Source of the DNA: an uncultured Actinomycetes bacterium
GTDB lineage: Bacteria > Actinomycetota > Acidimicrobiia > Spongiisociales > DATADW01
Direction: 5' to 3'
Assembly: GCA_963780745.1 (NCBI GenBank)
Contig: CAWACT010000001.1
Coordinates: forward strand, 148,737 to 212,736
Length of the DNA stretch: 64,000 nt
This document shows, one piece after another, positions 18,658 through 61,462 of this stretch (the stretch's first letter is position 1; every line of letters begins with the position of its first letter). A program made the translations under genes and the position numbers. Under the pieces are notes generated by a model. It worked only from the letters and a program-made list of their open reading frames with translations, was not told the origin of the DNA and made no database searches.

Positions 18658-19512
18658 TTAGTGACGGTGGAAGAAGTCGGGAAGTCGCGGGTCTCCGGGG
18701 TGCTCCCACCCCGGCTCGACCGAGGTCAGCGCCCGGCGCCTGCTCTCGATCCATGCCTCGAAGGCCCGGCCGCGTAGGTCGCTGAGCAGGTCGGCCTCGA
18801 TCTCGGAGCGCACCGCCTCGAACGGCTCCACGCCGGCGGGGATCACCGCCAGCACCACCGCAACATGCCAGCCGAACTCCGATTGGACAGGGCCGAGGAC
18901 GCTCCCCTCGGGGCAGGCGAAGACCGCATCCTCGAAGGGCCCAACCATCTCCCCGCGCCGCATCTCGCCGAGCCGGCCGCCACGATGCCGGGTCCCGAGA
19001 TCGATGGAGAGGGAGGCGGCCACGCTGGCGATGTCCTCGCCGGCGCCAAGCCGCTCTCGCGCCAAGAGCGCGCTCTCGGGATCGGCTGTCAGAACGTGGC
19101 TGACCACCCGCCACTCCTCGTGTCGGAAGCGATCGAGGTTGCGGTGGTAGTAGCCGGCAATGTCGTCTTCACTCACAACCACATTCGAGGTCACCCGGTC
19201 GAAAAGAGTTCGGGCGGCGGCCTCGAGCCGAGCCGCCTCATCTGGGTGCGAGCCGTTGCTGGTGGGCACGACGTCGTCGGGCAGGTAGGCGTTGTCGGGA
19301 TCGACCCCCGCCTCGATCCACACGAGGGCCTCGGTGACCAGCAGGTGCGCCATCCAGCGCCGCCAGCGGCGGTCCTCGACTCCGGCGGCGGGGAGCCAGT
19401 CGGCCATGGCGCCTCGGGCCACGGCGGCAAGCCGGGCCTCGACCATCTCCGCTTCGATGGCCCGCCCCGCCACCGTGGCGACGATGGGTCCGGGCGACGG
19501 CGAAGATGTCAT
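18658..19512 (-). CDS. peptidyl-prolyl cis-trans isomerase, parvulin (PpiC/PrsA-like) type
   Basis: 284-aa ORF. The C-terminal rotamase module is ..HVLTADPESA...GGRLGEMRRGEMVGPFEDAVFA...GPVQSEFGWHVAVV... ATG 19512 overlaps the GH38 stop (ATGA). Confidence 0.75.
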   Translation of the reverse strand: MTSSPSPGPIVATVAGRAIEAEMVEARLAAVARGAMADWLPAAGVEDRRWRRWMAHLLVTEALVWIEAGVDPDNAYLPDDVVPTSNGSHPDEAARLEAAARTLFDRVTSNVVVSEDDIAGYYHRNLDRFRHEEWRVVSHVLTADPESALLARERLGAGEDIASVAASLSIDLGTRHRGGRLGEMRRGEMVGPFEDAVFACPEGSVLGPVQSEFGWHVAVVLAVIPAGVEPFEAVRSEIEADLLSDLRGRAFEAWIESRRRALTSVEPGWEHPGDPRLPDFFHRH

Positions 19513-22500
19513 CCGCCTCCCCCGATTCGCACCCGAAGCGCCTCGGTGTAGTGGAGCCGGCCGAAGTACATGACCTTCACCAGCGCCCAGTACTCAGCCG
19601 GACGGGCGCCGTGAGGAGGGCTCACCGTCACCGTCAGGGTCGTCTCTTCTCCACCACCAATGGCGAAACCGGTGGTCCATGGGGTGATCATCTCCCAAGT
19701 GTCGTATGGGCTGATCACCTGGAGCTCGCCCCGCACCTCGTCGAGGGTGAGGTTGCGCAGCCCGACCACGATCTCGCCCTGCTGCCCGGGGCTGAGCTCA
19801 AGATCTCGGCTGGTCAGTTCGACCTCGAGATCGCCCCGCAACTCGGGAAGGTCCGGTTGCGACAACCCGACCATGGCCTTGCCGGTCGCCGGATCGATTC
19901 TCAACGCGCTCTCCGTCGCCGGGGATGCGTCCAAACCGTCGCGCCGGTATTCCACCGTGACGACGTCCTCGTGGATCTGCCCGCCCTCGTCCCCGATCCG
20001 GGCCGCCACGAAGTAGCGCCCCGACTCCGAATCGACAGCGGGGCTGACCTCTACCGTGAACTGGAGGTGCGCTCCAGGCGCCAGGCGAAACATCCGCTGT
20101 GCCGGCTCGGCAGACCATCCGGAAGGGAGTCGCAGCTCGACCTCCCCTGCCACTGGGACGTCGGTCCGCTCCGAGGCCACCGCCACGTCGACGCTGAAGG
20201 GCCCGCTGCACCACAGACCCCGCGGCGAGACGCGGACAGTCACCGGCTGGTAGCCGAGCGGCGCCGCCCCCTTGTTGTGCAACCAGTAGGCGGCGAAGAC
20301 CGGCTGAGCGGGCTCGGCCCGCGGCCCGAGCTGAACCCGGTCGGAGGCCGGGCCAGCTTGGGTCTGCCCGGGAATCGCCCCCACCCCGACGATCTCGAAC
20401 CCGCCCAGCGAGAGCGATGTCGCCCCTTCCGAAAGGGACGTGCGGGTCTCCTCGAGCACGTCGGTGCGAAAGCCGTCCGATAGCGGCCAATGGGCGCGGA
20501 CCGATGCCTCGGTGGGCCGGCCGCCCGACTCCTGGAGACGCACCAGCAGGCCCCGTCCCGCGTCGGCCTCGGTGCCGGCCTGGCTGGCCATGGGGTTGCC
20601 CAGCGGCTTGAGCGCGCTCAGTAGCACCGAGGAAGGCTGGATCTCGAGGAAGCTCACCTCCCCAGCCAGGTCGCCCGAATGGATGTCGACCTCCTTGGCG
20701 TGGAAGGGTCGGTTGTATCCCTGGGCCATGCTCGGGATGCCTGCGGATCGCCAATCGCCGGCAAAACCGGTCAAGGCGTACTCGAAGGTGTGGCTCCAGC
20801 GCTGGAACTGGAAGTTGCCGCCATCGGGCAGGGTGCGTCGCGGCGGGTCGATCCAAATACCCGACGGCCATCCACTGCACGACCGCATCAGCGAGAGATG
20901 GAGGGCCCCGTAGGGGTCGACGTTGAACCCGGGGTTCCCCCGGTTCATCACCGCAACTCCGTAGTCCTCGACCCGACCCGAGCCGGCACCGCCGTCACCC
21001 ACCTCGTCGACACTCACCATGCCATCGCCCAGGTCGTCCGACAGTTCTCGAATCGCAGCCACCGTCTCCTCTGGCGTGTCGCCCGAGATGATCAGGACTG
21101 GGAGCGCCCGCGGGTCGCGCAGATCCGGGTTGGCCGTCCACACCTTCTGCAGAGGAGCTTCGGCGGGTACCCAGACCCGCCTCGAGCCCCCGCCCGAGCC
21201 GCGCACCTCAGGCATCAGCCGACTCGAGCACGGCTGCGCTGAACTTGTTGAGCTCGGGCCCGCCAACGCTGATTCGGGCGTCGGGGAGGTTGGAGTCGAG
21301 GTCGATCAACCCATAGCGGCCGTCTTCGTCCGTGGAGACGGTCGACGTCACCCCCTGCTTGATCAGGGCCTCCGCCAGCTCGTCACCGACGTCACCCCAG
21401 TCCTGCCCGGTGGGTATCACCACCTCGGCCACCGATATGGCGCGTGCTTCGTTCTCGCCAAGCTCGACCCTTACGCACCGGCTCAGCCCGAACCAGTCGT
21501 ATGCGGGGTAGTCAAGGGTGAAGGGGACTTCGGCGACATCCACCGAGGGGAACCCGAACGTCCGCCCCACTACCGCCCCCGCCACGCCCGACACCGGCAT
21601 CGCCCCCTCGACGTCCACCGGGAAGCGGACTCGGAACAGCGTGTCCTCGCCGGAGAAACCGTCGAGGTGGGTGCGGAACTCGATGCGGTCGAGACCGTTC
21701 CACAGCACAGTCTCCTGGGTGTAGCGACAGCCGAGCGCCGTGCCCACCACGGTGACCCGTTCCCCGATGGCGCAACGCTCCACAGTGACCTCGGCATCGG
21801 AGGACGCGGTGCCATCGGCGCGACCGTCGGGGACCAGGTGCCACGGTCCCTCGCCGTAGTAGGGATGGGTGGGGTACTCGCCATAGGCCAACAGCTCGTT
21901 TCCCACCTCACCAGCGGAAAGCAGCTCGCGGCCGACACCCTTGTCATAGATGCGAACCAGGGCGCCCCCCCGCTTCGGATCGGCTTCCACCAGGTAGCGG
22001 TCGCTCTCGGCGATGCTGCCCTCCTTGGGGGACCAACCGGACTCGGGCCTGTCGGTGGGCAGCAGCCGGTAGATGCGGTAGCCGAGGGCGGGGACCTCCT
22101 TGGCGAGGAAGCTGACCGTCGCCTGCGCGACCGAGCCGTCGTCGTGGCGTGACAGCGAATCCATGACGAGCTCCACGGCCGCCCCGGCCCCATCGCGCAG
22201 CTCGACCCCCGACGCCACCCCAGGCTCGAAATCGACCCGGAGTCGGCGCCAGGTCGGTGCGACTCGAAGCGGTCGGGTTGAAGACCGCCACCGCCCTGCC
22301 CTCCCCGGTGGAGTCGATCCTGGCCCCGATGTGGGCCAGCGCGGCGTCGAGAACGCCCCGTCCCAGCTCCCACGCCTCACGCCATCCCCCGAGCAGATCG
22401 AGGTAAACCTGATCGGATTCGCTCCCGGTGATCCCGTCGTGGTGTGCGTTGAACAGGAGCTGCCGCCATGCCTTGTCGATCGCCTCGGTGGGATAGCGGG

Positions 22501-23869
22501 CGCCGACGAGGGAGGCAATGGTGGCGAAAGCCTCGGCGTCGAGCAGCACGTTCTCCGCCAGCCGGTTTGCCTGCTTGGTGTCGATGAACGAGACGTCCTT
22601 CCCGGTGTAGAGAGGGTTCATGTCCCGGGTCTGGACACGCAGGTGGATCCCCTCGCGCTCCGCCTCCTCCCGTACTGCGGCAAAGAACCGCCGCGGCGTG
22701 GTGACGACGTAGCGGGGCGACAGGTAGCGGCTGTTCCAGTCGTGGGCGATCTCGGTCACCCATTTGTTGGGCGGGGTGTAGTCGCTGCCGACCGGTAGCA
22801 ACACGTTCTTGGTGGCGGCCACCGCCTTGAGCCGGAGGTAGCAGGCATAGGTCTCCTCCTCCGCTTGCGCCAGGTCGGCAGCGGCGTCCATCCACCAGCC
22901 GGAGGAGTAGTGGTCTGCCATGTAACAGGTGAGCAGCTTGGCCCCGCTCGGCGCCATCCATTCGAACTCGCTGGGGAACTGGACGCGGGGAGGTTCATCT
23001 GACCGGGTCTCCGACCGGAGCAGCTCGGGGGTTGGCGGCATCCGGTAGGGACCCCAGGCATGAAACGGGCCGCGGGCCCATGAGCTCGAGGTGAGCCCGG
23101 CGGAAGCAGCGAGACCAGGGAACTGCGGGTCGTGCCCGAAGGCGTCGAGCTGCCAGGCGGTGGCAGGATCGCCGCCCATCACATCGCGCTGGTAGCCGAC
23201 GCCGTAGACCAGGTTGCGGATCGTGGTCTCGGAGGCGGTGAGGTTGGTGTTGGGCTCGTTGTAGGTGCCGCCGACCAGTTCCAGCCGACCTTCATCGAGC
23301 AGCTGCCTCATGTAGGCGCGGTCCTCGGGATGGGCGTCCCAGTAGGGCTTGAGGTAGTCGAGCTCGGCGAGAACGAACGCATAGTCGGGGTCGCGCCGGG
23401 CGGCATCGAGGTGGGCGGCCACCAGAGGGAACCCGGGCGACTGGAATCCCGCCTCCCATTCCCATTCACCCTTGACCCAGGTCTCGGTGTAGGCGGCCTG
23501 GGTGTTCCACCACACCGGGTCGTAATGGAAATGGGGGATCATGAACACGGTCCAGCCCGGCTCTTCGACCACGAAGGTCGAATTGATGCCGGACGACCTG
23601 ACCCGACGGCTCTCCAACACGGCCTCGGCGGCGAGCTGTCTCGCCCTTGGCGGCATCGGCATCGACCGCAACCGGCACCTCCACCACGACCTCTCCGCCA
23701 TCGCCGCCCGAAACGTCGACCGGCTGCGGCGTCGAGAGCCGATCCCCCTCCACCCGCAGACGGGCAGACTCCGACGCCGACGGTCGAAACCGTGACACGC
23801 ACCACCTGGAGCGGATCGTCCGGCTGAGCCGGTGAACAGGTCGGTGGACTGGGCGGCGGTGATCGTCAT
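19509..23869 (-). pseudogene. large GH38 alpha-mannosidase (~1450 aa), at least four frame changes
   Basis: The pieces are: the N-domain in the frame of ORF 21944..25321 (FMIPHFHYDPVWWNTQ, QLDAFGHDPQFPG, NAHHDGITGS), the middle in ORF 21208..22518, and the C-terminal third in ORF 19509..21266. Junctions are ~22247 (CC where C gives ..TDLARLRVDFEPG..), ~21211 (extra T; ..ESADAEVRGSG..), ~23645 (AAGGG) and at least one more in the first 25 codons. ATG 23869 has GGAGG 5 nt upstream; alternative GTG 23798. Confidence 0.85.
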
Positions 23870-23926
23870 CGAACCTCCTGGGTCATGGGCCCGGCACGCC
23901 GCTGCCTGCCGTACCATGGCCCGGAG

Positions 23927-24537
23927 ATGGACGTTCTCGAAAGCCGCCCCTACCGGGTGATGCTGGCCTTCACCAACCTGATCCTGCTCAACCTGGCCTG
24001 GGCGCTGACCTCGCTGCCCGTGATCACGCTCGTCCCGGCGACGGCGGCCATGTTCGGGGTGGTGCGCGATTGGCGACGCGGCGACGAGCCCAGCATCCTG
24101 CCCGCCTTCGTGCGCCACCTGCGGGCCAATTTCCGCCAGGCGTTCGGGATCGGCCTCCTGTGGCTGGTCACGCTCGCGGTGCTCTTCCTCGACTACCGAC
24201 TGGTACGGAGAGCTCCCCGCCGGGGCGCAGATCCCCGCCCTCGTCGTGCTGGCGCTGGGCACGCCGCCGCCTTCGCCGCCACCTCGGTGTATCTCTTCCC
24301 GGTGATGGTGGGCTACCACGCTCGCTGGTGGGCGGTGATCCGCAACTCGTTCCTCCTTGGCATCAGCCAACTGCACACCACCGTCGCCGCTCTCCTCGTC
24401 GTGGTCGCGGTGGCGTTCCTCGCCACTCGGATCCCGATCACCCTCATGGTGTCGGCGAGCGCCGCCGCCTATCTGATACACGCCATCTGCAGCCGAGGGC
24501 TGGACGCGGGTGGAGAGGATGAAGACCACGGCTACTT
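23927..24537 (+). pseudogene. DUF624 (YesL-like) membrane protein; compensating frameshift pair, 3' end unresolved
   Basis: ATG 23927 in ORF 23885..24715. MDVLESRPYRVMLAFTNLILLNLAWALTSLPVITLVPATAAMFGVVRDW is the DUF624 N-terminus. Codons ~24195-24265 read Arg-rich (RLVRRAPRRGADPRPRRAGAGH), whereas the +1 frame gives a plausible TM helix (DWYGELPAGAQIPALVVLALG). The listed ORF runs 180 nt antisense into the permease gene, so the true stop is probably hidden by another shift. Confidence 0.55.
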
Positions 24538-25416
24538 GATGCTTCCCAGCGTGATTCCCTCGACCAGGGCGCGCTGGAAGAAGAAGAAGATCGCGATCAC
24601 CGGCAGTACCATCATCGTGGAGGCGGCGAGCAGCAGGTTGTACTGGATGTCGTGCGCCGAACGGAAGAAGTTGAGCCCGATGGCAAGGGTGTACTTCTCC
24701 TCCACCTGGAGATAGATGAGCGGTCCCAAGAACTCGTTCCAAGCGTGCAAGGCGGCGAAGACCCCGACCACGGCGATGGCGGGCATGGCCAACGGCATGA
24801 TCACCCGGAAGAAGATGGCGAGCTCCGACGCCCCGTCGACACGGGCGGAATCCGATAGCTCCATCGGTATCTGCAGCAGGAACTGGCGCATCAGGAAGAT
24901 CCAGAAAGCATGCCCGAAGACGAAGGGCACGATCAGCGGCAGGTAGGTGTTGACCCATCCCAGCGAGGCGAATATGTCGAACAGTGCCACGAGCACCACC
25001 GGGAAGGGGATGAAGACCGTCGCCAGGACGACGTAGAAGACCTTGTCCCGCCCCGGCCAGTCGATTCGGGAGAAGCCATAGGCAATGAACGGGTTGGCGA
25101 TCACCGAGGCGAGAACGGTGAAAAACGGTGATGATCACCGTGTTGCGCAGGAAGGTCCAGAACGGGATGAAGTTGACCGCGTCGACGAAGTTCTGCCACA
25201 CGAGTTCGCTGGGCCACAACGTCGGGGGCAACGCGGCGCAGTCTCCTCGCTCGACTTGAGCGCGGTAACCGACCATCCAGTACAGCGGGAAGAGGTAGAG
25301 CAGCGAAAGCGGGATGAGCACGAGTCCGGGAGACCCATTTCGCCCGCGTCTTGCGCCGCGAGGTCGGGGTCACCGGCTCCAAGGACGGATGGTGCCTCGA
25401 CGCTGATGTCACTCAT
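24532..25416 (-). pseudogene. carbohydrate ABC transporter permease (MalG-type), about five frame changes
   Basis: The C-terminal 190 aa are intact (ORF 24532..25104; EAA-loop ELSDSARVDGASELAIFFRVIMPLAMP). The N-terminal 100 codons are split over three frames: MSDISVEAPSVL / EPVTPTSRRKTRAKW / LVLIPLSLLYLFPLYWMV / TALKSSEE / PPTLWPSELVWQNFVDAVNFIPFWTFLRNTVIIT. Confidence 0.8.
25114..25133. repeat. 10-bp insertion formed by a 7-bp direct repeat (aacggtg-aaa-aacggtg) inside the MalG-type permease
   Basis: Deleting 10 nt restores ..LRNTVIITVLASVIANPFIAYGFSRIDW.. in one frame. Confidence 0.7.
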
Positions 25417-47077: not shown

Positions 47078-47115
47078 CGAACACGGCCGAAAAGTCTTGT
47101 CTGTAAGGAGGAGAA

Positions 47116-48439: not shown

Positions 48440-49239
48440 GCCTCGAAACCGAGCTAAGAGATCACCTGCGACGAGCCGCCGCAGAGATGACGGTGCGTGA
48501 ACCCGACTATGCCGGTGTCGTCTCCCGCGGTCGGTGGCGAAGGGCGATCAGGTACCTCGCCACCGCTGCCGTCGCGTCCATGGTGGTGGTCGTCGCTGTG
48601 GTGCTCGCCCCGAGCGTCGGCAGTGAACGGGCCGAGCAGACGACGTCGCCCACGCCGACCATCCAGCCGGCCAAACTCGACGAACAATATGGGGAATTGG
48701 TACCTGGGCCCTACGTGATCACGTCCGTCCCCCCCTTCAACATCACGATCACGGTGCCCGACGGCTGGGAGAGACTCCTAGTCCCGGCTGTGATTTGGGC
48801 GGCTCCCAACAACGCCACCAACCTGGGGTTCGGGACGCCAGACAACCTCTATGCCGACCCGTGCGCAATCGATCTCGGCATGCTCGACCCGCCCCCGGGT
48901 CCCAGTGTCGATGACCTCGTCGCCGCTTATGCCGCGCTCCCTGGAATGGAAGCCACCGTACCGCAAGAGGTGACGGTTGACGGCTATGACGCCAAGTACA
49001 TCGAACTCACCGGACCGGAAGGCCGGGATGAGTGCGTCGACGGAGAAGCATTCATCGGGCCCGCGCCCAACGGCGAGTCGGTGCCCGCTCCCGGTGCCGA
49101 CGCCCGAGATCGGTTGTGGATCGTTGACGTCGCCGGGAATCGTCTGGTAATCAGCTCGAACCTCCGTGACTACGCCTCGCCGGAACAAAACGCCGAGCTG
49201 GAACAGATCATCGAATCGATCCAGATCGAATTGCCCTGA
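48436..49239 (+). CDS. single-pass membrane protein downstream of the ECF sigma (possible anti-sigma/partner)
   Basis: GTG 48436 overlaps the sigma stop (GTGA). A short cytoplasmic segment is followed by a TM segment (YLATAAVASMVVVVAVVLAPS) and a ~200-aa extracytoplasmic domain. No family recognised. Confidence 0.6.
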   Translation: MSLETELRDHLRRAAAEMTVREPDYAGVVSRGRWRRAIRYLATAAVASMVVVVAVVLAPSVGSERAEQTTSPTPTIQPAKLDEQYGELVPGPYVITSVPPFNITITVPDGWERLLVPAVIWAAPNNATNLGFGTPDNLYADPCAIDLGMLDPPPGPSVDDLVAAYAALPGMEATVPQEVTVDGYDAKYIELTGPEGRDECVDGEAFIGPAPNGESVPAPGADARDRLWIVDVAGNRLVISSNLRDYASPEQNAELEQIIESIQIELP

Positions 49240-50155: not shown

Positions 50156-51499
50156 TCACCGAGGTGGGCGATCGTCGCCTGAATCTGACCAGCCACGATC
50201 TCGCGTCGTGAGGCGCTTCAACCACGAGGCACGCCCGGCGAGGGACGCCGACGCTCCACCGACGACTCTCCGGGTGGCGACCGCCCCTGCCATGAGCAGC
50301 GAGCCGCAGAGGACACCGACGGCGACTGCAAAGATCGACACGATCGTCGCTACGAGGTCCTCGGTCCCCGCCGCCCGCACATCGCCGGCAAGCTGGGTGA
50401 GACCGATCAGCCCGAGAGCCCCCGGGACGAGCAGCCAGAATCCCGGGATGAACAGAGCGTGCGCGGGCATGGCCGATGGAAGTCGTGAGACCAAGACGGC
50501 AACAATCGTCATCACTATGGCGCCGATGAACGCACTGACGTATCCACCGAGAAGCGCGTTCCCCAACACTTGGCCGCCCCACGCCGCGTAGAGGACGATG
50601 AGCATGCCACCCAGCGACTTCGCCGGTGCGGAGTTGGCGACTGTCACACCGACCGCGAAGACGAGCACGCCGACCCACGGAGCCCAGTCGCCGATGGCCT
50701 CAGCCGAGCTCGTGAACACCTGCGCCGCGGGTATGCCGACGGCGTCGATACCGGCGAGTATGCCGAACGCGAGCAACGCCAGCTGCATGACCCCTGAGAC
50801 GAGTCGGCTCGACCCAGACACCATCTGTCCGGCCGCCAGCTCGAGCACCGCGGTCGTCAGCGCGGCGCCGGGCAAGAAAACCACCAGCGACGCGACCATG
50901 GCGTGCAGCCCCGAGTCGGCGAGACCGCTCTTTACCGCGATAGCGCCGAGCGCGGCGACGGTGAAGGCGGCGATGACCGGCATCAGGATCCGGAGCGGCG
51001 ACTGGCCCCGTCCGATGGTGAGCAGCAACCCCACCAGCGCGCCGAGCACCGCTGCCGCCGCCACCTCGCGGGCGGCGGGTTGCAGGATCAGACAGAGGCC
51101 CACAGTGAGCACCGAATAGCCGGCGATGCTCTGAAATCGCCCGAAACGAGGAGCCATTTCGCGGATCTCGTCGAGTATCCGGAGACCGTCGGCCGGCGGC
51201 ACGGCGCCTCGCTCCGCCTTCTCGAGCAGTCGGTCGACCGCGGCGATCTGGTCGAGCCGGGGCGGACCGGCAAGTGGAGCGGTGAGCTCGACGGTCGTCG
51301 GTTCGCCGCGCCCCATCGCGACCATCAGATACGTTGGGAACGCGGAAACGGTGGCGGCGTCGGCGCCATACGCCCGCGTCACGCGGGTGAGTCGCTCCTG
51401 CACCACGGTCACGGTCTCGCCGGTCGCGCTCACCGCCGCCCCGAGCTCGACGACAAAAGCCTGCAAGTCCCGCGTTTCGTCGCGTGCCGGCTCGGTCAC
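50156..51499 (-). CDS. threonine/serine exporter (ThrE) family membrane protein
   Basis: 447-aa intact ORF (GTG start). A soluble N-terminal ~120 aa (..ELGAAVSATGETVTVVQERLTRVTRAYG..) is followed by ~10 TM segments, the arrangement typical of DUF1212+DUF3815 ThrE-type proteins. Confidence 0.7.
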   Translation of the reverse strand: MTEPARDETRDLQAFVVELGAAVSATGETVTVVQERLTRVTRAYGADAATVSAFPTYLMVAMGRGEPTTVELTAPLAGPPRLDQIAAVDRLLEKAERGAVPPADGLRILDEIREMAPRFGRFQSIAGYSVLTVGLCLILQPAAREVAAAAVLGALVGLLLTIGRGQSPLRILMPVIAAFTVAALGAIAVKSGLADSGLHAMVASLVVFLPGAALTTAVLELAAGQMVSGSSRLVSGVMQLALLAFGILAGIDAVGIPAAQVFTSSAEAIGDWAPWVGVLVFAVGVTVANSAPAKSLGGMLIVLYAAWGGQVLGNALLGGYVSAFIGAIVMTIVAVLVSRLPSAMPAHALFIPGFWLLVPGALGLIGLTQLAGDVRAAGTEDLVATIVSIFAVAVGVLCGSLLMAGAVATRRVVGGASASLAGRASWLKRLTTRDRGWSDSGDDRPPR

Positions 51500-52778: not shown

Positions 52779-54032
52779 TCAGTCGATTCGGTGAGCCTCG
52801 TGGAGACGAACCGTGCCCGACACGCCCTTCAGCTCGACGTCACCGACCTCGGAGAACGCCACCGGCGCTCCTTCGGCCGCTTCGACCACTTCCTGGCTCA
52901 CGAGAACTTCTCCTGGCCTGGCGTAGTCCGCGATCCGGGCGGCAACATTCACCGTGCGGCCGAAGTAGTCGCCGAGGTGGATGACGACAGGCCCGGCGTG
53001 GATTCCGACGTGGGCGGGCGGAAGGGCGTGCATCTCCATCGCTTCGCTCATGTCCAGGGCGGCGACGACACTGGCCCCAGGATCTGGGAAGAAGAACATC
53101 ACCCCGTCCCCCAGCCACTTCACCGGCTGCCCCCCGTGTTCCTGGGAGGCGCGCCTCACCAGGGTGGCGAGTCTCGCCGCGATATCGGCCGCCGCCTCGT
53201 CCCCTCGCTCTTCGGTGAGCCGCGTGTAGCCGGTTACGTCGAGGAAGCACACCGCGGGAGGACGATGCAATCGGGTATGGAGGCCGGCTCCTTCCAGGGC
53301 AGCCTCGACCTCCTCGACAAAGCTCGTGCTCCATGCGTGCTCCTGCTGACCGTGGTAGATGGCGAGTAGCGCCTGCTCGGTTAGGGGTGCCAGGCGGGAC
53401 CCGAGGTCGGCTTGTTCCGTCAGCACCTCGCCTTCATTCATGCCGGTGTCGAGGAGTGGCTGCACGACTTCGGTCCGATACCACTCGGTTTCGGTCTCGG
53501 CGATCCGGCGCAAGCTATCCCCACAGGCTCGGAGCCATCGCTCGATGACGACAGGCTCAAAGCCGACCGATAGCTGAAGCTCGATCACCGGAACCACCGA
53601 AAGCTCATCTTCGCGAACCGGATCTTCCGGTCGTGGCTCGGCGAAGCCGAGGGCCTCGCGGACCACTGTCAGGAGCTCGAGGGGGATGCCGGTCCGAGCG
53701 CTCAGATCGCGAAAGGTGGTGGAACTCAGCCCGCCAAATCGATCGAACGCATTCGCCTCCAGAAACGAGAACGAGAGGGCTCCGCGTCGCACCGCCGCCC
53801 CCATCCCGTCGAGCGGCACCCCGGCCAGCTCCAAGCCGTGCACCCAACGCACCTTCCGTGCATCAGCCGCTAACTGTCCCACTCCCCTGCCCGACCCCAG
53901 TATCCCGATCGCAACCAACCGGTCGACATACTCTGGTTCGACTCCGGCCCTTCGGGCCACCTGCTGGCGCCATTCCTCGACCACGGGAGGCCTGATCCTA
54001 GGTGCGAAGCCGGCACCAACACCCAAGCCCAC
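52779..54032 (-). CDS. class III adenylate cyclase with N-terminal helical regulatory domain (Rv1264-like architecture)
   Basis: 417-aa intact ORF. The C-terminal cyclase has VCFLDVTGYTRLTEERGD, KWLGDGVMFFFPDP and GIHAGPVVIHLGDYFGRTVNVAARI. The N-terminal ~200 aa are helical, with ..TGIPLELLTVVREALGF... Confidence 0.8.
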   Translation of the reverse strand: MGLGVGAGFAPRIRPPVVEEWRQQVARRAGVEPEYVDRLVAIGILGSGRGVGQLAADARKVRWVHGLELAGVPLDGMGAAVRRGALSFSFLEANAFDRFGGLSSTTFRDLSARTGIPLELLTVVREALGFAEPRPEDPVREDELSVVPVIELQLSVGFEPVVIERWLRACGDSLRRIAETETEWYRTEVVQPLLDTGMNEGEVLTEQADLGSRLAPLTEQALLAIYHGQQEHAWSTSFVEEVEAALEGAGLHTRLHRPPAVCFLDVTGYTRLTEERGDEAAADIAARLATLVRRASQEHGGQPVKWLGDGVMFFFPDPGASVVAALDMSEAMEMHALPPAHVGIHAGPVVIHLGDYFGRTVNVAARIADYARPGEVLVSQEVVEAAEGAPVAFSEVGDVELKGVSGTVRLHEAHRID

Positions 54033-54094: not shown

Positions 54095-55384
54095 TTAGAG
54101 GACCCAGAGCGACCGGAACACGAACGAGGCCATCTGGTCGCGCTGGACCGCTTCGCTGGGACAGAACTCGGTTTCGGTGCATCCCTCGGTGATCCCGGCG
54201 GTGGCCAGGGCGTCAATGGCAGCCTCGTGGATGTTGCCGTCATCGTCGGTGAACAGGTCGTCGCCGGCGCCCTCGGTAAGGCCCAGAGCGCGGGCGAGGA
54301 AGGAGGCCATCTGGTCGCGCCGCACCGGATCGTTGGGACAGAACTCGGTAGTGGTGCACCCTTGAGTTATGCCCACTGCTGCGATGGCGTTGATGTCTTC
54401 CTCGAAGACGGACCCGGTGTCATCTGTGAAGAAGTCCTGGTCGGATTCGGGAAGGTTCAATCCTCTGCGAAGAAAGGCTGCCATTTGCCCGCGCCGGACG
54501 TCTTCCAGCGGGCAGAACAGGTTGTTGTCGGGAGGGTTGCAGCCCAGGGTGACGCCGTCGGCGGCGATCACCAGGATCGCCTCCCCATGTGGCGGAACCA
54601 GCTCGACATCGTCGAATCGCTCGACCACGACGGTCAGCTCAGGGGGGATCTGGCCGCGGATCTCCCCTGCCGGATAGGCCGTGGTGTGCACATTGAAGTA
54701 GGCCTCGCCGTCCTGGATGGCGTCGCCTACGTCAATGATGTCTTGCCAGCCGCATTCGTTGCCCGGGTCCGGTTCGATTTCGTTCGTGTCCACGAGGATT
54801 CCGTCGTGAGTCACGGGATCGCCACTGAAGAGTGTGACTCCCACAGGACCGTCTTCGCCCGCCCCGGCACAGTGGATGTGGGCAGCGACGATCTCCTCGA
54901 GGTTGTAGGTGATGACCCGCACTCCAATTGTCGTCTCGAGAAAGGTGACAGTGGCCACCCCGACGCCGTCGCTTTCGACCGCCTCGGTCTCCTGGCCGGG
55001 ATCCATCGGAGCTGAGTAGTAGGCGTTGGAACCCTCGCCCTGCATCGCCGCCGCCGGCAGCGGCGCGATCACCAGACAGAGCACCACGACTACGAGTGTC
55101 TTGCGCACGTCCTGTACCCCCATCTTCCCTGCGTCTCGTCCCGATAGTACGCGATCGAAGGCAGGGGTGAGTCCTGAACGAAGGGTGGCTTCCCGCCGGA
55201 GCAGTAGATCGTTCGCCGACGCAACCCTGCCCCGGCGCGACCTCATGAGGAGGCGGGTTCCCAACCAGGCGAGCACCGCGGCGACCACCAACCCGGCAAT
55301 GGCGATGGGGAGGGTCTGCCCAGCAACGGTGCCCGCGCCCTCGCTTGCTCTGTACTCCCCCACCGCCTGCACCACGAAGAGCAC
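54095..55384 (-). CDS. CHRD-domain protein with three C-terminal SLH-like repeats; start uncertain
   Basis: CHRD signatures AAHIHCAGAGEDGPVGVTLF and GEAYFNVHTTAYPAGEIRGQI. Repeats: ..FCPLEDVRRGQMAAFLRRGL / FTDDTGSVFEEDINAIAAVGITQGCTTTEFCPNDPVRRDQMASFLARAL / FTDDDGNIHEAAIDALATAGITEGCTETEFCPSEAVQRDQMASFVFRSL. The likely start is ATG 55123 (MGVQDVRKTLVVVVLCLVIAPLPAAA signal peptide). The ORF stays open upstream to GTG 55384 through a further hydrophobic segment. Confidence 0.7.
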   Translation of the reverse strand: MLFVVQAVGEYRASEGAGTVAGQTLPIAIAGLVVAAVLAWLGTRLLMRSRRGRVASANDLLLRREATLRSGLTPAFDRVLSGRDAGKMGVQDVRKTLVVVVLCLVIAPLPAAAMQGEGSNAYYSAPMDPGQETEAVESDGVGVATVTFLETTIGVRVITYNLEEIVAAHIHCAGAGEDGPVGVTLFSGDPVTHDGILVDTNEIEPDPGNECGWQDIIDVGDAIQDGEAYFNVHTTAYPAGEIRGQIPPELTVVVERFDDVELVPPHGEAILVIAADGVTLGCNPPDNNLFCPLEDVRRGQMAAFLRRGLNLPESDQDFFTDDTGSVFEEDINAIAAVGITQGCTTTEFCPNDPVRRDQMASFLARALGLTEGAGDDLFTDDDGNIHEAAIDALATAGITEGCTETEFCPSEAVQRDQMASFVFRSLWVL

Positions 55385-55507
55385 GCCGGCGATGGCGATA
55401 CCGGCGGCGAGGACGAAGCAGACGATGGCGCCAACGAAGCCGGTCCACGTGGCCTCGATTCCCTCTCAGTCTCTCTCCTTGTTCTCGGCGCCCTTGTCGA
55501 GTTGGCT

Positions 55508-55939
55508 CTATGACCTGTCCCATGCCGAGCTGACCGTGCGGTTCACCGGTCGCACCATCCAGGCCAGCACGGCCATCGCCGCCGACAGGACGATGCTGAC
55601 CAGCACAAGGGGCGACTCCAACCGATCCCATCCGTCCCGGCTCAAGAGTCGCTGCCCATGTCGCTCGCTGAGGTAGCCGGGCACCATCAGCGCCCCGAGC
55701 ACCCCTAGCACCCGCGCCCAGCCAGTGCTGGGGCGCCGCGCCACCGCGGCGGTCGCCACACCCTGCAGACTGAGCATGGTGACCGGTGCGGAGAGGGCGG
55801 TCCCGTTGAAGAGCGAGTCCTGGAGTATCCGATCCGGTGAGCCCCGCATGTTCACCAGCGGGACATCGAAGAACCTACGGCGGCGCAGCGCCACCGCCAT
55901 GCCGGTCAGTCCGCACGCCAGCTGAGCGACAGACGCCAC
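55508..55939 (-). CDS. hypothetical small membrane protein
   Basis: 143-aa ORF (GTG start) with 3-4 hydrophobic segments, codirectional with and between the response-regulator and CHRD genes. No family recognised. Confidence 0.45.
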   Translation of the reverse strand: MASVAQLACGLTGMAVALRRRRFFDVPLVNMRGSPDRILQDSLFNGTALSAPVTMLSLQGVATAAVARRPSTGWARVLGVLGALMVPGYLSERHGQRLLSRDGWDRLESPLVLVSIVLSAAMAVLAWMVRPVNRTVSSAWDRS

Positions 55940-56016
55940 GAGCGAGCCGACGTGCTGGGGTCACCCCGGCGACCGTAGCGAGTCGATTCCCGAAATGGAC
56001 TGTCTCCCAAGCGGTG

Positions 56017-57252
56017 TCAGGACCGGAGGAAAGCGAGAACCGCGAGTACCCGCCGATGGTCGTCGGGGGCGGGAAGCAGGTCGAGCTTGGTGAAGATGCT
56101 GCGAACGTGCCCTTCCACCGTCTTCGGGTTGAGAAATATTCGATCGGATATCGCCTGATTCGACCGTCCCTCGGCCATGAGGGCGAGCACCTCCCGCTCC
56201 CGGTCGGTGAGCGTCTCCAGCGGGCTCGACTCTCGCGCCCGCCCCACCAGGCTGGCGACGACCTCGGGATCGATCACCGACCCCCCGGCTCCGACCCGGC
56301 GCACCGCGTCGGTGAACTCACGCACATCGGCGACCCGGTCTTTGAGCAGGTAGCCGAGCCCAGCCGCCCCCCCGGCAAACAACTCGATGGCGTAAGAGGT
56401 TTCGACGTACTGGGAGAGGACCATCACGCCGACCTCGGGGTGCTCCGATCGGATCTCGTGGGCGGCGCGCAGGCCTTCGTCGGTGAAGGTAGGGGGCATG
56501 CGCACGTCCACCACCGCCACGTCGGGAGGATCCCTCCGGATCACCTCCAGCAGCTCATCCGCGGTTCCTGTTTGGGCCACTACATGGAACCCTGTGTCCG
56601 AGAGCAGACGGGCGACGCCTTCGCGGAGGAGGATCGAGTCGTCAGCCAGGGCGACCCGCATGGAAGGGGCCGACGCTGCGCTGGTCCGGGTGAGCAGCTG
56701 TGCGGGGTCGTCGGCCGGAACCACCCTGATCACCTTGACCGGTTCGGCCAGCCCCTTCACCCGCGTCTCGCCGTGGGCGGCGTAGTGCACGTCGTCGATG
56801 ACCCCGGCAAAATGGACCACCTCGGGTGACGCCAAGATCTCCCCCGGACCCGCCAGGCTGCAAAGGCGAGCTGCCAGGTTGAGGGCACCGCCCCGGTACC
56901 CGCCCTCCACCGTCACCGCCTCTCCCGCGTCCAAGCCCATTCCGACGTAGAGCGGAAGCTCGGGTTGCTCGATGGCGCATTGCACGAGTCGGCCTTGCAG
57001 CGCCACCGCGGCCAGGATCGCTTGACGAGGCGAGTCGAACCCCACCAGCACTTCATCGCCCTTGAGATCGATCACCGCGCCGTAATGCGCCACCGCTACT
57101 TCACCGGTCAGGTCGGCGAAGGTCGTGGTCAGGCGGGCCGCAGCCTCGTCGCCGTGTTCCTGCGTGAACGACGTGTAGCCGCGGATATCGGCGAGCAAGA
57201 AGATCTTGACGGCCGAGGGCGGCGCCGCCGGTGGGCCGGCCGCACTCGTCAT
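56017..57252 (-). CDS. NarL/LuxR-type response regulator with an N-terminal class III cyclase homology domain (CYC-REC-HTH)
   Basis: 411-aa uninterrupted ORF. Cyclase part: IFLLADIRGYTSF, DLKGDEVLVGF, GGALNLAARL. Receiver part: MRVALADDSILLREG, VAVVDVRMPP, GYLLKD. HTH part: LTDREREVLALMAEGRSNQAISDRIFLNPKTVEGHVRSIF. ATG 57252 overlaps the kinase stop (ATGA). Confidence 0.8.
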   Translation of the reverse strand: MTSAAGPPAAPPSAVKIFLLADIRGYTSFTQEHGDEAAARLTTTFADLTGEVAVAHYGAVIDLKGDEVLVGFDSPRQAILAAVALQGRLVQCAIEQPELPLYVGMGLDAGEAVTVEGGYRGGALNLAARLCSLAGPGEILASPEVVHFAGVIDDVHYAAHGETRVKGLAEPVKVIRVVPADDPAQLLTRTSAASAPSMRVALADDSILLREGVARLLSDTGFHVVAQTGTADELLEVIRRDPPDVAVVDVRMPPTFTDEGLRAAHEIRSEHPEVGVMVLSQYVETSYAIELFAGGAAGLGYLLKDRVADVREFTDAVRRVGAGGSVIDPEVVASLVGRARESSPLETLTDREREVLALMAEGRSNQAISDRIFLNPKTVEGHVRSIFTKLDLLPAPDDHRRVLAVLAFLRS

Positions 57253-59386
57253 CGCACTCCGGACCGCGCCATGGCTGCTGCGCCTGCAGCGACCCGCTCA
57301 GCCGCGACGGCTTCCGACGCTCCGACGGGGATGCGGCAACGGAGGGTGGTCCCCTCGCCCGGTGGGCTGTCGACCTCGATGGTGCCGCCCACGGCCTCCA
57401 CTCGGTCGTTGAGCCCGCGCAACCCCGACCCGCGCCCGGGGTCGGCCCCACCCACGCCATTGTCGGAGACCTCCACCCGAAGCCACTCGTCGTCATCCTC
57501 GACCCGAACCCGGACTGCGGTCGCTGCGGAGTACTTCGCCGCGTTCGGCCAGCCCCTCGGCCACCACGAAGTAGGCAGTGGCCTCCACCGCAGCAGGGAG
57601 GCGACGATCGAGTGTCGACTCCACCGTCGCCGGGACGACGCTGCGATCGGTGAGCGAGGCGAGCGCCGGGATCAACCCACGCTCGGTCAGGATCGCAGGG
57701 TGAATCCCCCGAGCGAGGTCACGCAGCTCGCTCAGGGCGAGCGTCAACTCCTCCGAGGCCTGATCTAGCCGCTCTCCGAGTCCGTTCTCGGAATCGTCCA
57801 CCATGCTCCGTGCCATCCGCAGCGCCAGGGCGATGGAAACCAGCCGCTGCTGGGCACCATCGTGGAGATTGCGCTCCAGGCGACGCCGCTCCTCGTCTTG
57901 CGCGGTCACCAGCCGCTGGCGCGAGCTGCGCAGTTCCTCGACCAGGCGGACATTGCGCAGCACCAGCCCGGCCTGCGAGGCCAGATCCTCCAGCAGCTTG
58001 GCTTCCGCGGTGTTGAGTGGGTCTCCGCGGGGCTTGGCCACGCTGATCACGCCGAGGAGCTCGCCCTGGTGCCGGACCGGGATGGCGGCGTCGGCGCCCG
58101 GAACCGACACATCCTGCCCGGTGACGATCGGCGGCTCCAGGGGGGCACTGGGTGGGTCGGACCAGGCCGCTTCGCGCACCAGATCGGATCCAACCCGGAG
58201 CCAGACCTCAACCCGGGCGGCACCGATCCCTTCCGCCACCATGGCCGCGACCCGGGGCAGTAGCTCCTCAGTGGCGGTCGAGCGAGCCATCCTCCCCGAG
58301 AGGTCCGACAGCACCTCGTAGGGCGTCGCCCGGCGACCGTAGACGATGCGGTTGGCGAAACGCTGCACCCGCTCCCGCACCGGTTGAAACGCCACCGCCA
58401 CCACCGCGGTGGCCACTATCGACAACACCAGGTTCCCGGAACCGCCGACCAGGGTGCCGACACCCACCACCAACGCCACGTACACCGCAGTGAAGAACAG
58501 GGCCAGAGCCCCGTACACCAGCGTCTTGTTGATCACGACATCGACGTCGTAGAGCCGGTAGCGGAGAATGGCGATCGCCGCCGAAACTGGGATCCCGGCC
58601 AGCAGCACGGCGAAGACCGCTGTCGCCCCCCTCCCATTCCTCGAGCGGGGGCACCACGATGAGTGCGACTAACCAGGCGACCAGCAGCGCCACGGCGTAG
58701 AGGAGCCACTTCAGCTGAGCTCGTAGCTGGATATCGGCCCTGCGGTACCGCACCATCAGCGAGACCAGCGACAACACGGCCAGCACACCCAGCACCACGT
58801 AGGCAGCCCCGGCCAGCAGGCCTTCCTCGTGATCGGGTATCCCTTGGATGCCGATCGGGTTGGGCACCGTGATCGGCTGGCCGGTGACGTCGACGGAGTT
58901 GAACTCGGGCTGCAGCCCAGTGAGAACCATGAACCCGACCGAGAGCACGATGGCCGCCCAGCCCACGAGGGCCCACCGGCGACTCAGAGGACGTCCCGTG
59001 GGAAAGAGCAGCGCGGGGAAGACCAGAGCGAGGACCAGGGTCGGGGCCCAGAAGATCTCCCCGAACATGGCTGCGATCCCCGCCCACCCTGACCCGGGTT
59101 CGGCGAAGCGCAAACCTAGAAGCGACGTCGCGGCGCCCAGCATCGGCGCCAGGCCGATGAAGGCGAACAGCGGTCCCAGCCTGTGCCCGGGCACCCGCAT
59201 CATCAGCAGCCCGCCCACTACCCCGAAGGAGAAGAAGGCGAACGCCAGCGGGACCTCTTCGAGGCTGAGGTCATTCACCAGGTAGTCGCTGACGAGGAGT
59301 AAGGCAGCCAGCAGCGCGCCCAGAGCGATCACCGCCCATCCTGCGATCGTCCAACGACGCTTCCGAGCGTGATCGGCTTCGGTCAT
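57249..59386 (-). pseudogene. sensor histidine kinase (multi-TM N-terminus + GAF-like + HisKA_3 + HATPase_c), two frame changes
   Basis: ORF 58268..59386 gives ~8 TM segments. ORF 57493..58608 gives ..ILRYRLYDVDV.., the GAF-like part and ERRRLERNLHDGAQQRL. ORF 57249..57476 gives EVSDNGVGGADPGRGSGLRGLNDRVEAVGGTIEV. The junctions are in a G6 run (~58630; ..EWEGATAVFAVLLAG..) and at ~57546 (..AEGLANAAKYSAATAV..). Confidence 0.8.
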
Positions 59387-59802
59387 GAGGGCTTCTCCTC
59401 GAAGCGAAGCGCGGCCGTCTTCGGGCTCGTTTGAACCGGATCGTCGCTCACCAGCTCCTCCACCAGATGGCGGATGCGGGCGCCGGACAGTTCCGCCTTT
59501 GGCACGAAGCCAACCGCCCCGAACGACTCTATGTCGTCGCCGTAGTCCGATTCGTCTCTGGTCGACACCAGGACCACCTTCGCCTCAATTTGGGTGAGGA
59601 GGCGCCGGGTCACCTCGAATCCGGACAGATCGGGGAGCTGGACGTCCATGAGCACTACATCGGGTCGCAAAGAAAGCGCCGCCCGCAGGCCGGAATCTCC
59701 GTCCTCCGATTCGCCGACCACGACGAACCCCTCGCTCTCGAGGAGGTCACGAGCAAAGGCTCGGAAGCTCGGATGATCGTCAACGATGAGGACCTTCACC
59801 AT
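59383..59802 (-). CDS. stand-alone response-regulator receiver (REC-only) protein
   Basis: ATG 59802 in ORF 59383..59874. Motifs: MVKVLIVDDHPSFR, VVLMDVQLPDLSG, GFVPKAEL. The stop overlaps the kinase start (ATGA at 59383-59386). Confidence 0.8.
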   Translation of the reverse strand: MVKVLIVDDHPSFRAFARDLLESEGFVVVGESEDGDSGLRAALSLRPDVVLMDVQLPDLSGFEVTRRLLTQIEAKVVLVSTRDESDYGDDIESFGAVGFVPKAELSGARIRHLVEELVSDDPVQTSPKTAALRFEEKPS

Positions 59803-59873
59803 GGTCGTATCGTGCCACCCGACCCGTCGCCTCCGCCAGAGTGCTGGCACTTGATTTCGATCCAAGTCTTCCA

Positions 59874-59885
59874 AGGGTTAACCCT
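59874..59885. promoter_or_regulatory. palindrome AGGGTTAACCCT ~72 nt upstream of the REC-kinase-regulator operon
   Basis: Perfect 12-bp palindrome that shares the 10-bp core GGGTTAACCC with 11337-11346. Confidence 0.4.
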
Positions 59886-60040
59886 GGATGTGATGGCAGC
59901 AGCCGTCCGACCGATCAACGGACCATGATGTCAGCGAACCTGCCCTGCATGATGTGGGTTTCGGCGCCGGGCACCACCGGCCCGCCGGTCTCCAGGTCCA
60001 AGCCCCCGACCGGGAGTAGCAACCCGTGTTCGGTCGAACG

Positions 60041-61462
60041 TCAGTTGAGCTCGGCGAGGACCTCGGCGGCGACGCGGCGCCCGGAGCGCACTGCTCCATC
60101 CATGTATCCGTTCCACACGTCCGACGTCTCGGATCCGGCCCAATGGATACGGCCGACCGGCTCGGCAAGGGCCCGGCCGTACTGGGTCCATACACCGGCA
60201 CCGAGCCTGCCGCCGTAGCAACCGCGGGTGAATTCCTCGGCGCTCCAGTCCAACTCGAGGACGTCGAAGGGCTGTCCCGCTTCGGGGCCGAGAAACTTGA
60301 CCAAGGTGTTCACGACGAGGTCCCGCCGCCCGGCAGAGCTCAACTGGCTGGCGGCACGAGCGTGCGCACCCTCGATGAACCCGGCCAGCACCCCACACGA
60401 TGCGTCAGGCGGCGAATTGTCGATCACAAAGCTCAAGGCGTCGTCGAGGCTGAGAACCAGCCCGCTCAAGCCACGTTCCCGCCAGAAAGGGGTCTCGAAG
60501 CCGACCTGCACCTTGATCAGCGACCCGGCCGGGATCTGTTGGGTGAGCCCGTCACGAAGCACCGGCAGGGCGGGGACATAGCGCAACCGGCCGGCCAAGG
60601 TCGGCGGAATGGCGACGACGGCTCGCCGCCCGGTCACCTCACCACTCTCGTAGGTCACGCGCACACCCTGCTCGTCTTGGGTGATGGTGCGGACCACCGA
60701 GTTGAGACGAACTCGCCCTCCGAGCTGCTCCGCCATCCGCTCGGAGATCTGGTGTGCACCCCCCAGGACGCGGGCTTCCTGGGCGCCACCCGTGGTGGAG
60801 GCGAGGCGGGTGAGCCCGTTGCCCGACTTCACGTAGAACAAGAAGTGCAGCAGCGACATCATCGGTGTCTCGGCGCTGAACAGGACCGGCACGAGCATCC
60901 TGAAGAACCGCAGCGCGACGGCGTCGACGGTGTTCATTGCCAGCCACGTGTCCAGAGTCTGGGCATCGAACTCCTCGGCTCCCGGGGACTCCCACGGGGA
61001 AGCCGTCGACACCGTCGAGGCAAGGGTCTCGATCATCTCCCAGAGGCGGCCCACCTCGGCGGCGCTGTCCGGCGGAAGTCCGATCGACTCGTCGGCCCAG
61101 CGGGTGATCTGACCGTCGATCACGGTGAGGGCATCACCCTCGTCGTAGGTGAGGAAGGTCTCCAGGCCGAGCTCTTCGATGAGGTCGAGAACCGCATCCT
61201 GGGTCGCGCCGACCCACTGCCCGCCCATCTCAACCGGCACCCCGTTGCTCAACACGCCGCCGCAGTTGCGACCGGCCACTCGCCCACGCGCCTCGAGGAC
61301 CGTGACAGCGTTGCCAGCCTCGACGAGTGCTCGTGCCGCGGTCAACCCGGCGAGACCCGCCCCGACGATCACGACATCGGTGACATCTCCTGGCACGGCT
61401 CCTCCCACGATGTGCTGGCGTGAGACAGGACCGGGCCAGTCATCACCCCACCGGTCGAGCAA
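60041..61462 (-). CDS. FAD-dependent amine oxidase (flavin monoamine/putrescine oxidase family)
   Basis: Intact ORF with VVIVGAGLAGLTAARAL (GxGxxG), ..VLEARGRVAGR.. and the C-terminal ..HWAGSETSDVWNGYMDGAVRSG... The likely true start is GTG 61396, just after GGGAGGAG; the listed ORF starts at TTG 61462. Confidence 0.85.
   Translation of the reverse strand: MLDRWGDDWPGPVSRQHIVGGAVPGDVTDVVIVGAGLAGLTAARALVEAGNAVTVLEARGRVAGRNCGGVLSNGVPVEMGGQWVGATQDAVLDLIEELGLETFLTYDEGDALTVIDGQITRWADESIGLPPDSAAEVGRLWEMIETLASTVSTASPWESPGAEEFDAQTLDTWLAMNTVDAVALRFFRMLVPVLFSAETPMMSLLHFLFYVKSGNGLTRLASTTGGAQEARVLGGAHQISERMAEQLGGRVRLNSVVRTITQDEQGVRVTYESGEVTGRRAVVAIPPTLAGRLRYVPALPVLRDGLTQQIPAGSLIKVQVGFETPFWRERGLSGLVLSLDDALSFVIDNSPPDASCGVLAGFIEGAHARAASQLSSAGRRDLVVNTLVKFLGPEAGQPFDVLELDWSAEEFTRGCYGGRLGAGVWTQYGRALAEPVGRIHWAGSETSDVWNGYMDGAVRSGRRVAAEVLAELN

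Follow-up and report, generated by a model that had tools for sequence, protein, structure and literature searches.

Proteins joining a class III cyclase homology domain (CHD) to a LuxR-type helix-turn-helix (HTH) are known from Mycobacterium tuberculosis, where Rv0386, Rv1358 and Rv2488c share an N-terminal CHD, a C-terminal LuxR HTH and non-canonical substrate residues. Proteins of the Rv0386 type are about 1,000 aa long, possess a central NTPase/TPR region and lack a receiver. The gene considered here lies at 56017..57252 on the minus strand of a 64,000-nucleotide stretch from an uncultured Actinomycetes bacterium (contig CAWACT010000001.1, positions 148,737 to 212,736), which is called the window. 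Unlike the Rv0386 type, its product is 411 aa long, displays a phospho-receiver (REC) between CHD and HTH and is encoded in a two-component operon. Membership of the Rv0386 type was rejected, as neither Pfam nor NCBIfam returned an ATPase or TPR match and the 411 residues are filled by CHD, linker, REC and HTH. The same contrast had been drawn in a preliminary description of this DNA, made from the letters alone, and it agrees with a 2012 survey of actinobacterial LuxR regulators, which recorded CHD plus LuxR only in Mycobacterium and held no CHD-REC-LuxR class (PMC3466318).

The REC-HTH half aligned end to end with the response regulator DevR (E 3e-26, PDB sequence search). DevR is partnered by DevS and DosT, which are HisKA_3 kinases with a GAF domain, like the kinase encoded at this locus, and DevR boxes are GGG...CCC-type palindromes, like the palindrome AGGGTTAACCCT found upstream of the operon. 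In contrast to the protein studied here, DevR/DosR, VraR, LiaR and DesR carry no N-terminal enzymatic domain, and AGGGTTAACCCT was specific to the operon family of the CHD regulator. In VieA (REC-EAL-HTH), an enzyme of cyclic-nucleotide metabolism is united with a receiver and an HTH, and in PleD and WspR (REC-GGDEF) phosphorylation-driven oligomerisation activates a cyclase active only in dimeric form, as is proposed below for the CHD. These three differ from the CHD-REC-HTH arrangement in enzymatic fold, in messenger (c-di-GMP) and in domain order. Classical REC-CHD cyclases, for instance P0226 with a CHD of the same subtype (54 % identity), display the receiver first and no DNA-binding domain, whereas here the CHD comes first, ahead of the receiver and then the HTH, which would give two outputs.

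The reading frame of 411 codons and a stop was uninterrupted in the open reading frame (ORF) list, and Pfam, PDB and fold searches agreed on the succession of CHD, linker, receiver and HTH that the preliminary description had read from it (a CHD at ~15-185, an Ala/Ser/Pro linker of ~20 aa, then a complete NarL-type receiver and a LuxR HTH). The CHD occupied residues ~14-180 (56713..57213, minus strand like all parts of the gene), as delimited by the alignment and Foldseek superposition on the cyclase Ma1120, by conservation and by the ratio of nonsynonymous to synonymous substitution rates (dN/dS). It was followed by a flexible linker rich in Ala, Ser and Pro (residues ~181-197, 56662..56712), the sequence and length of which varied among relatives; its predicted local distance difference test score (pLDDT) fell below 50 at residues 188-195 and its dN/dS was near neutral (~0.8 over residues 186-197; here and below by the Nei-Gojobori method). 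The receiver spanned residues 198-320 (56293..56661), with Pfam Response_reg at residues 200-305 (E 1.1e-15) and the acceptor set D204/D205, D249 (the phospho-acceptor), S280, Y301 and K304, each kept in at least 115 of 120 sequences. The LuxR/GerE HTH and a conserved C-terminal PDDHRRVLAVL tail took up residues ~342-411 (56020..56229), Pfam GerE being found at residues 347-391 (E 8e-14), and the recognition-helix residues were invariant in the alignment of relatives. Residues 198-392 were grouped by NCBIfam with the NarL-family regulators MadR, MctR and NarL. The best solved relatives of this half in the PDB sequence search were DevR, VraR and LiaR, with a full-length alignment to NarL as well, and LiaR, VraR, DesR and DevR were matched in both the PDB sequence and the Foldseek searches. 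The whole protein was 99 % identical to database cluster P0001.

Recognition of the N-terminal domain depended on the method. Guanylate_cyc (PF00211) aligned over residues 19-167 with 13.8 bits (E 0.044), short of the Pfam gathering score of 21.9 bits, and was recorded for just 14 of the 120 listed relatives. On the Pfam score alone the cyclase domain would be counted absent, a reading overruled by searches against PDB sequences and folds, which were considered decisive. With phmmer against PDB chains, the CHD matched the Ma1120 cyclase with an E-value of 2.4e-12, followed by 3mr7 (3e-11), CyaB and Cya2 (~2e-8), Rv1900c (2.5e-6) and Rv1264; NCBIfam added a weak match of residues 18-170 to the cyclase region of LipJ (1e-6). 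An AlphaFold2 monomer model built on 44 family sequences displayed a mean pLDDT of 82.8, with values of 81-96 over most of the CHD. In Foldseek, residues ~14-180 of this model superposed on Ma1120 over ~167 columns with a target-normalised template modelling (TM) score of 0.93 and a root-mean-square deviation (rmsd) of 1.4-1.8 Å (TM 0.89-0.94 and rmsd 1.4-2.5 Å over the range of Ma1120 chains), the next fold matches being Cya2 (E 4e-13), Rv1264, Rv1900c, CyaC and CyaB. A cyclase domain within residues 1-190, where the preliminary description had expected profile searches to find one, was thus recovered by PDB sequence and fold matches, with Pfam itself below threshold. Judged by sequence and predicted fold, the N-terminal domain is a genuine class III CHD.

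Residues were assigned by aligning the CHD position by position with Ma1120 and with the KDA-to-EGY mutant of the latter, in the numbering of PMC4215837, and conservation was counted over the window protein plus 119 relatives of full length. D22 and D66 aligned with the metal-binding Asp residues of Ma1120 and were kept in 117 of 119 and 120 of 120 sequences, respectively. N125 occupied the canonical position of the transition-state Asn (A164 in Ma1120) and was kept in 119 of 120, R129 aligned with Ma1120 R168 (120 of 120) and the lysine of the KG motif, K166, was kept in 119 of 120. The metal Asp motifs and the Asn/Arg pair named in the preliminary description were accordingly found again as D22, D66, N125 and R129. 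The two substrate-specifying positions departed from those of adenylate cyclases: the Lys/Asp pair was replaced by Asp62, aligned with Ma1120 K101 (Glu in 115 sequences, Asp in four including the window, Gln in one), and by Gly118, aligned with Ma1120 D157 and Gly in all 120. The preliminary description was right in placing a Gly at the purine-specifying position; that residue is G118, within EGGYRG and slightly upstream of the Gly it had cited, and the other specifying position, Asp62, had been missed. In the guanylate-cyclase type, Glu at the first of these positions is combined with a small or neutral residue (Cys, Ser, Thr or Gly) at the second. The family consensus, Glu-Gly (96 %), conforms to this and is the pair of Cya2; the window protein has the guanylate-cyclase-like pair Asp-Gly, without the Glu, and Ala128 (A167 in Ma1120) at the position of the enhancing Tyr of Cya2. 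By alignment, the CHD family carries the complete catalytic residue set, with Glu-Gly in place of Lys-Asp.

Ma1120, a Mycobacterium avium adenylyl cyclase and the closest solved structure, is a minimal CHD of ~170 residues which displays Lys101, Asp157 and Ala at the Asn position, the corresponding residues of the window CHD being Asp62 (Glu in the family), Gly118 and the canonical Asn125. The window CHD rather resembles the engineered Ma1120 K101E/D157G mutant, in which guanylate cyclase activity rose about five-fold, making it the best producer of cyclic GMP (cGMP) among the mutants, still with a preference for ATP; addition of the Cya2 Tyr to this mutant equalised both substrates (PMC4215837). 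According to the same paper, the first specifying residue of guanylate cyclases is Glu, and among bacterial ones Cya2 carries the E-G pair (PMC4215837). Cya2 (Synechocystis, 2w01) shares this pair with the family consensus and differs from the window protein in the Tyr opposite Ala128, in Glu instead of Asp and in an entirely different domain context. Since Glu/Gly (Asp/Gly here) stands in place of Lys/Asp, the product may be cGMP or a mixture of cyclic AMP (cAMP) and cGMP rather than cAMP alone. A second cyclase gene lies ~2 kb downstream (52779-54032, minus strand); it is Rv1264-like, with an Ad_Cy_reg domain and a CHD according to Pfam, and in contrast to the CHD regulator it keeps the canonical Lys/Asp in its translation (K...GD, D..G..VN.AAR).

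The fusion was far from isolated. At least 120 clusters at 90 % identity (400-415 aa, 61-99 % identical to the query) matched over the full length in the protein database, and an exhaustive search of 50 %-identity representatives covered both halves of the query in 21 of the top 150 clusters. Among species-representative genomes it was found at 34 loci, all in metagenome-assembled genomes (MAGs). The closest genome relatives were Acidimicrobiia (79 % identity, long-read MAGs); other carriers belonged to Nocardioidaceae, Propionibacteriales, Microlunatus and Mycobacteriales, and a few bins were labelled Chloroflexota or Acidobacteriota. CHD-REC-HTH is therefore a conserved family, mainly of Actinomycetota, and not a one-off. 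JGI/IMG names its members automatically as 'DNA-binding NarL/FixJ family response regulator/class 3 adenylate cyclase', while NCBI names only a 'response regulator' or 'LuxR C-terminal-related transcriptional regulator' and leaves the cyclase unnamed. Full-text literature searches returned no description of CHD-REC-HTH, although subscription literature or domain-architecture databases may still mention one. The preliminary description had allowed that this might be a common, already characterised family: the architecture did prove common in metagenomes and no characterised member was encountered, so that the combination is visible in databases through IMG names but uncharacterised.

Related proteins displayed further arrangements. 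Regulators of the subfamily with the PDDHRRVLAVL tail also carried a Ser/Thr kinase (P0154, P0172), a PAS-HisKA_3-HATPase kinase (P0198) or an extra receiver (P0125, P0135) fused to their N-terminus, and in one case read CHD-REC-REC-HTH (P0201); the REC-HTH core of this subfamily appeared to gain N-terminal signalling modules repeatedly. Conversely, the Glu-Gly subtype of CHD (54-58 % identity; ELRGDE...GGYRGxALNxAAR) was the sole enzymatic domain of the REC-CHD protein P0226 and of the receptor-like proteins P0262, P0263 and P0268 (CHD, transmembrane segment, beta-propeller, SBP_bac_5). In the receptor-like set, which also includes P0267, a cytoplasmic N-terminal CHD was followed by a hydrophobic segment, beta-propeller repeats and SBP_bac_5; these proteins look like another uncharacterised cyclase architecture.

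The regulator stands at the end of a conserved operon, behind a solo receiver and a HisKA_3 sensor kinase, in that order. This order was also displayed by loci L001 and L002, both with an intact kinase, and by about 25 genome loci, and the solo receiver was present in most related loci. In the window, the solo receiver gene (59383..59802, minus strand, 139 aa; Response_reg E 4e-22) opens the operon. The sensor histidine kinase (57255..59386, minus strand), spread over three frames, was delimited by tblastn, DNA alignment, codon-phase profile and Pfam matches on its fragments; it displayed a multi-spanning transmembrane N-terminus, GAF, HisKA_3 and HATPase_c and lies directly upstream of the regulator, with which it overlaps by ATGA. 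By this arrangement of the sequence, the regulator is translationally coupled to the kinase gene. In some relatives, two tandem kinase paralogues, each of 728-737 aa, separate the solo receiver from the CHD regulator (L007 1692-5968, L008 1611-6007).

The ATG of the regulator, overlapping the kinase stop codon, was preceded four bases upstream by GGAG. An in-frame ATG also stands exactly at the start of the receiver (56661, MRVALADD), and frameshifted genes do occur in the window, which might suggest that REC-HTH alone is made from there, the upstream 197 codons being untranslated or decaying, or that the fusion arose artificially through assembly or a frameshift. Upstream of the internal ATG stands CCCCTTCC, which holds no purine-rich stretch, whereas the first ATG has both GGAG and the ATGA overlap. 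The CHD displayed a dN/dS of 0.08 against L001 and of 0.21-0.23 against L003 and L004, with 0.03-0.10 for REC and HTH in the same three comparisons, from which it follows that the CHD is translated and constrained. The codon-phase signal ran unbroken through the ORF, and the fusion recurred with the same boundaries across 34 genome loci and at least 120 clusters that are independent of one another. Exclusive use of the internal ATG, which the preliminary description had kept in view, was contradicted by this selection and start-site context; together with the recurrence in the family, they led us to reject both the internal start and the artefact as extremely improbable.

A perfect 12-bp palindrome, AGGGTTAACCCT, was located at 59874..59885, 84 nt upstream of the start of the solo receiver, and occurred as a single copy in the window. 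It was invariant in five aligned upstream regions with diverged flanks. Exact copies were found in 17 of the 82 fetched loci, always upstream of the solo receiver (for instance at L001 3537-3548 and L002 5359-5370), and 39 of the 64 loci that included the upstream region displayed it with at most one mismatch, Chloroflexota orthologues among them. The distance to the start codon was 81-86 nt in Actinomycetota and placed the palindrome at about -50, -66 or -124 in Chloroflexota. The palindrome is likely an operator for the HTH of the regulator, which would amount to autoregulation. Its variants tracked those of the recognition helix: EGHVR was found with AGGG..CCCT, ETHVG or ESHVA with GGGG..CCCC and EAHIA with (A/C)GGG..CCCT, a correspondence which is phylogenetically confounded and gives a hint of covariation, as would fit direct binding by this HTH. 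The Chloroflexota orthologues with near-identical palindromes lacked the cyclase domain. The ~110 nt from the palindrome to the start codon were unusually conserved at the DNA level, including the block GGTGGCACGATAC. A scan of 55400-60300 returned no promoter-like sigma-70 site, and terminator-like hairpins at chance level only.

Head-to-tail pairing is what creates the active sites of class III cyclases, and receivers of the NarL family dimerise upon phosphorylation; a model in which a single dimerisation event serves both outputs is the most economical. In this model, the membrane kinase would phosphorylate D249, and the receivers would dimerise as in regulators of the NarL/VraR/DesR type. 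The receiver dimer would free and pair the HTHs, which would bind AGGGTTAACCCT upstream of their own operon (autoregulation) and probably other sites, and would at the same time bring the CHDs, held on their flexible linker of ~17 residues, into a head-to-tail dimer with two active sites, whereupon cyclic nucleotide monophosphate (cNMP) would be made. The solo receiver would probably act as a phosphate sink or as a competitor for the same kinase. We assign a probability of about 0.45 to such a dual-output regulator, in which phosphorylation-driven dimerisation would switch on both DNA binding and synthesis of cGMP or cAMP. The more specific proposal that the whole family consists of phosphorylation-gated guanylate or dual-specificity cyclases that are also transcription factors, one Asp phosphorylation yielding both cGMP and autoregulation through AGGGTTAACCCT, is a speculative extension that we hold rather improbable.

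Several observations weigh against the dual-output model. The CHD is divergent, as its sub-threshold Pfam score and the few relatives with a recorded PF00211 indicate; the predicted TM score of the AlphaFold2 monomer was 0.47, so that the inter-domain geometry is not confident; and binding of the HTH to AGGGTTAACCCT is itself inferred. The E-G pair is no guarantee of a GTP preference, given that Ma1120 K101E/D157G prefers ATP and that the Cya2 Tyr corresponds to Ala128, and the window protein carries Asp, not Glu, at position 62. Lineages of CHD-REC-HTH at 38-50 % identity displayed E, H or L instead of the transition-state Asn, and some had also lost a metal Asp. Finally, orthologous operons without CHD occur in Actinomycetota (L035 and L038, with 68-90 nt between kinase and regulator), and the Chloroflexota orthologues all lacked it; the CHD is hence an accessory module, gained or lost, and dispensable for the core pathway. 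The divergence of the CHD (13.8 against 21.9 bits), the non-canonical substrate pair, the Asn-less lineages, the varied N-terminal modules taken up by this regulator subfamily (Ser/Thr kinase, PAS-kinase, extra receiver) and the CHD-less orthologues working in the same operon would all suit a non-catalytic pseudo-cyclase, which would bind nucleotide or dimerise and so act as an input or clamp that ties DNA binding to the level of ATP or GTP or to CHD pairing. Such a role is viable, at least in the distant lineages lacking the Asn. As a general reading it is unlikely, as retention of two Asp, the Asn, the Arg and the KG lysine in 117-120 of ~120 members of the window's own clade would be hard to explain for a clamp; moreover, the same CHD subtype is the sole enzyme of REC-CHD and receptor-like proteins, which argues for the CHD being an output enzyme.

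The CHD might also be active without being gated by receiver phosphorylation, either constitutively or in response to another cue, the fusion then serving co-expression or co-localisation, or the cNMP feeding back on the pathway. The long, flexible and near-neutral linker does not suggest that the domains are rigidly connected for allostery, and the CHD precedes the receiver, in reverse of the usual order from REC to output; dimerisation by proximity, however, needs no rigid connection. A GAF domain was found by Pfam in the kinase and the GAF fold binds cNMP in some proteins, which speaks for feedback, but an NKFDE-type cNMP motif was not seen in the GAF segment in a by-eye look at the translation only. 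That the fusion to a phosphorylatable receiver is so tightly conserved suggests functional coupling, and we regard an ungated cyclase as quite unlikely.

The kinase of the window requires separate consideration. With tblastn, residues 1-710 of the intact 711-aa kinase of L001 were covered in frames -1, -2 and -3 by three pieces (59386-58613, 58629-57544 and 57554-57255), placing frame shifts at about 58613-58629 and 57544-57554. By DNA alignment, one of the shifts was traced to an additional G at 57546, which falls within the ATP-binding N-box EGLANAAKY. L001 and the window were 89 % identical in DNA over the shared 4 kb; the kinase pieces shared 91-93 % (the two nearer the C-terminus) and 69 % (the N-terminal one) identity with the L001 kinase, contained no in-frame stops and displayed strong codon periodicity throughout. 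The breaks leave either a regulator that is orphaned here or a trace of assembly indel errors. If both frameshifts were real, the module would be in course of loss in this genome and the CHD regulator, as an orphan, would remain unphosphorylated, depend on cross-talk or be on its way to a pseudogene. The two frame changes relative to an intact orthologue, one of them within the N-box, fit such a loss, as does another multi-domain gene split across frames, a GH38 alpha-mannosidase. The absence of in-frame stops, the 69-93 % identity and the kept periodicity fit recent events or assembly indels, the closest genome relatives being long-read MAGs, and the regulator and solo receiver are both intact, which speaks against loss of the module; we consider it somewhat unlikely. 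The GH38 gene (19509-25321, minus strand) seems split into an ORF with the N-terminal and middle domains (21944..25321) and an overlapping one with the C-terminal domain (21208..22518), the NPCBM_assoc domain lying in ORF 19509..21266; it fits the earlier statement that many large ORFs of the window are frame-damaged. Segmentation of the whole window by codon phase of the GC content at third codon positions was too noisy beyond the kinase region.

Response regulators normally have a single output, and the combination of DNA binding with cNMP synthesis would, if true, couple local transcription to a cell-wide messenger. Were the more specific guanylate-cyclase proposal true, uncultured soil Actinomycetota would possess a branch of cGMP signalling, and the ELRGDE/GGYRGxALN subtype would represent a widespread, unrecognised clade of bacterial guanylate cyclases that extends to REC-CHD and receptor-type proteins. 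Bacterial guanylate cyclases are rare, as expressed by the words 'a dearth of guanylylcyclases' in the title of a 2004 review (cited in PMC4215837), and a conserved Glu-Gly CHD clade found in several architectures would offer a new place to seek bacterial cGMP signalling. The cyclase domain escapes Pfam-based pipelines and NCBI names, which constitutes an annotation gap. For experiments the family is well suited, as its operon is defined, a candidate operator is at hand and orthologues without CHD occur naturally.

A role as a Pycsar (PycC) defence cyclase was rejected: the PycC matches returned by PADLOC were weak, generic (36 bits) and common to the canonical adenylate cyclase of the window, and the neighbours are two-component genes. 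An effector gene for Pycsar was not seen among the neighbouring genes of the operon, the whole window not having been scanned for cNMP-binding effectors.

Synteny beyond the three-gene operon was not conserved. Downstream of the regulator, the window harbored a 143-aa ORF without Pfam match (55508-55939, minus strand) and a protein with CHRD and SLH domains (54095-55384, minus strand); ~330 bp (55580-55907), comprising most of the 143-aa ORF, were missing from the otherwise collinear L001. Further along, a ThrE exporter was located at 50156-51499 (minus strand) and a cupin gene at 47107-47604. Between these, at 47921-49239 on the plus strand, a fragment of an extracytoplasmic function (ECF)-type sigma factor (Sigma70_r4_2) was followed by an overlapping 267-aa ORF without Pfam match, possibly an anti-sigma factor.

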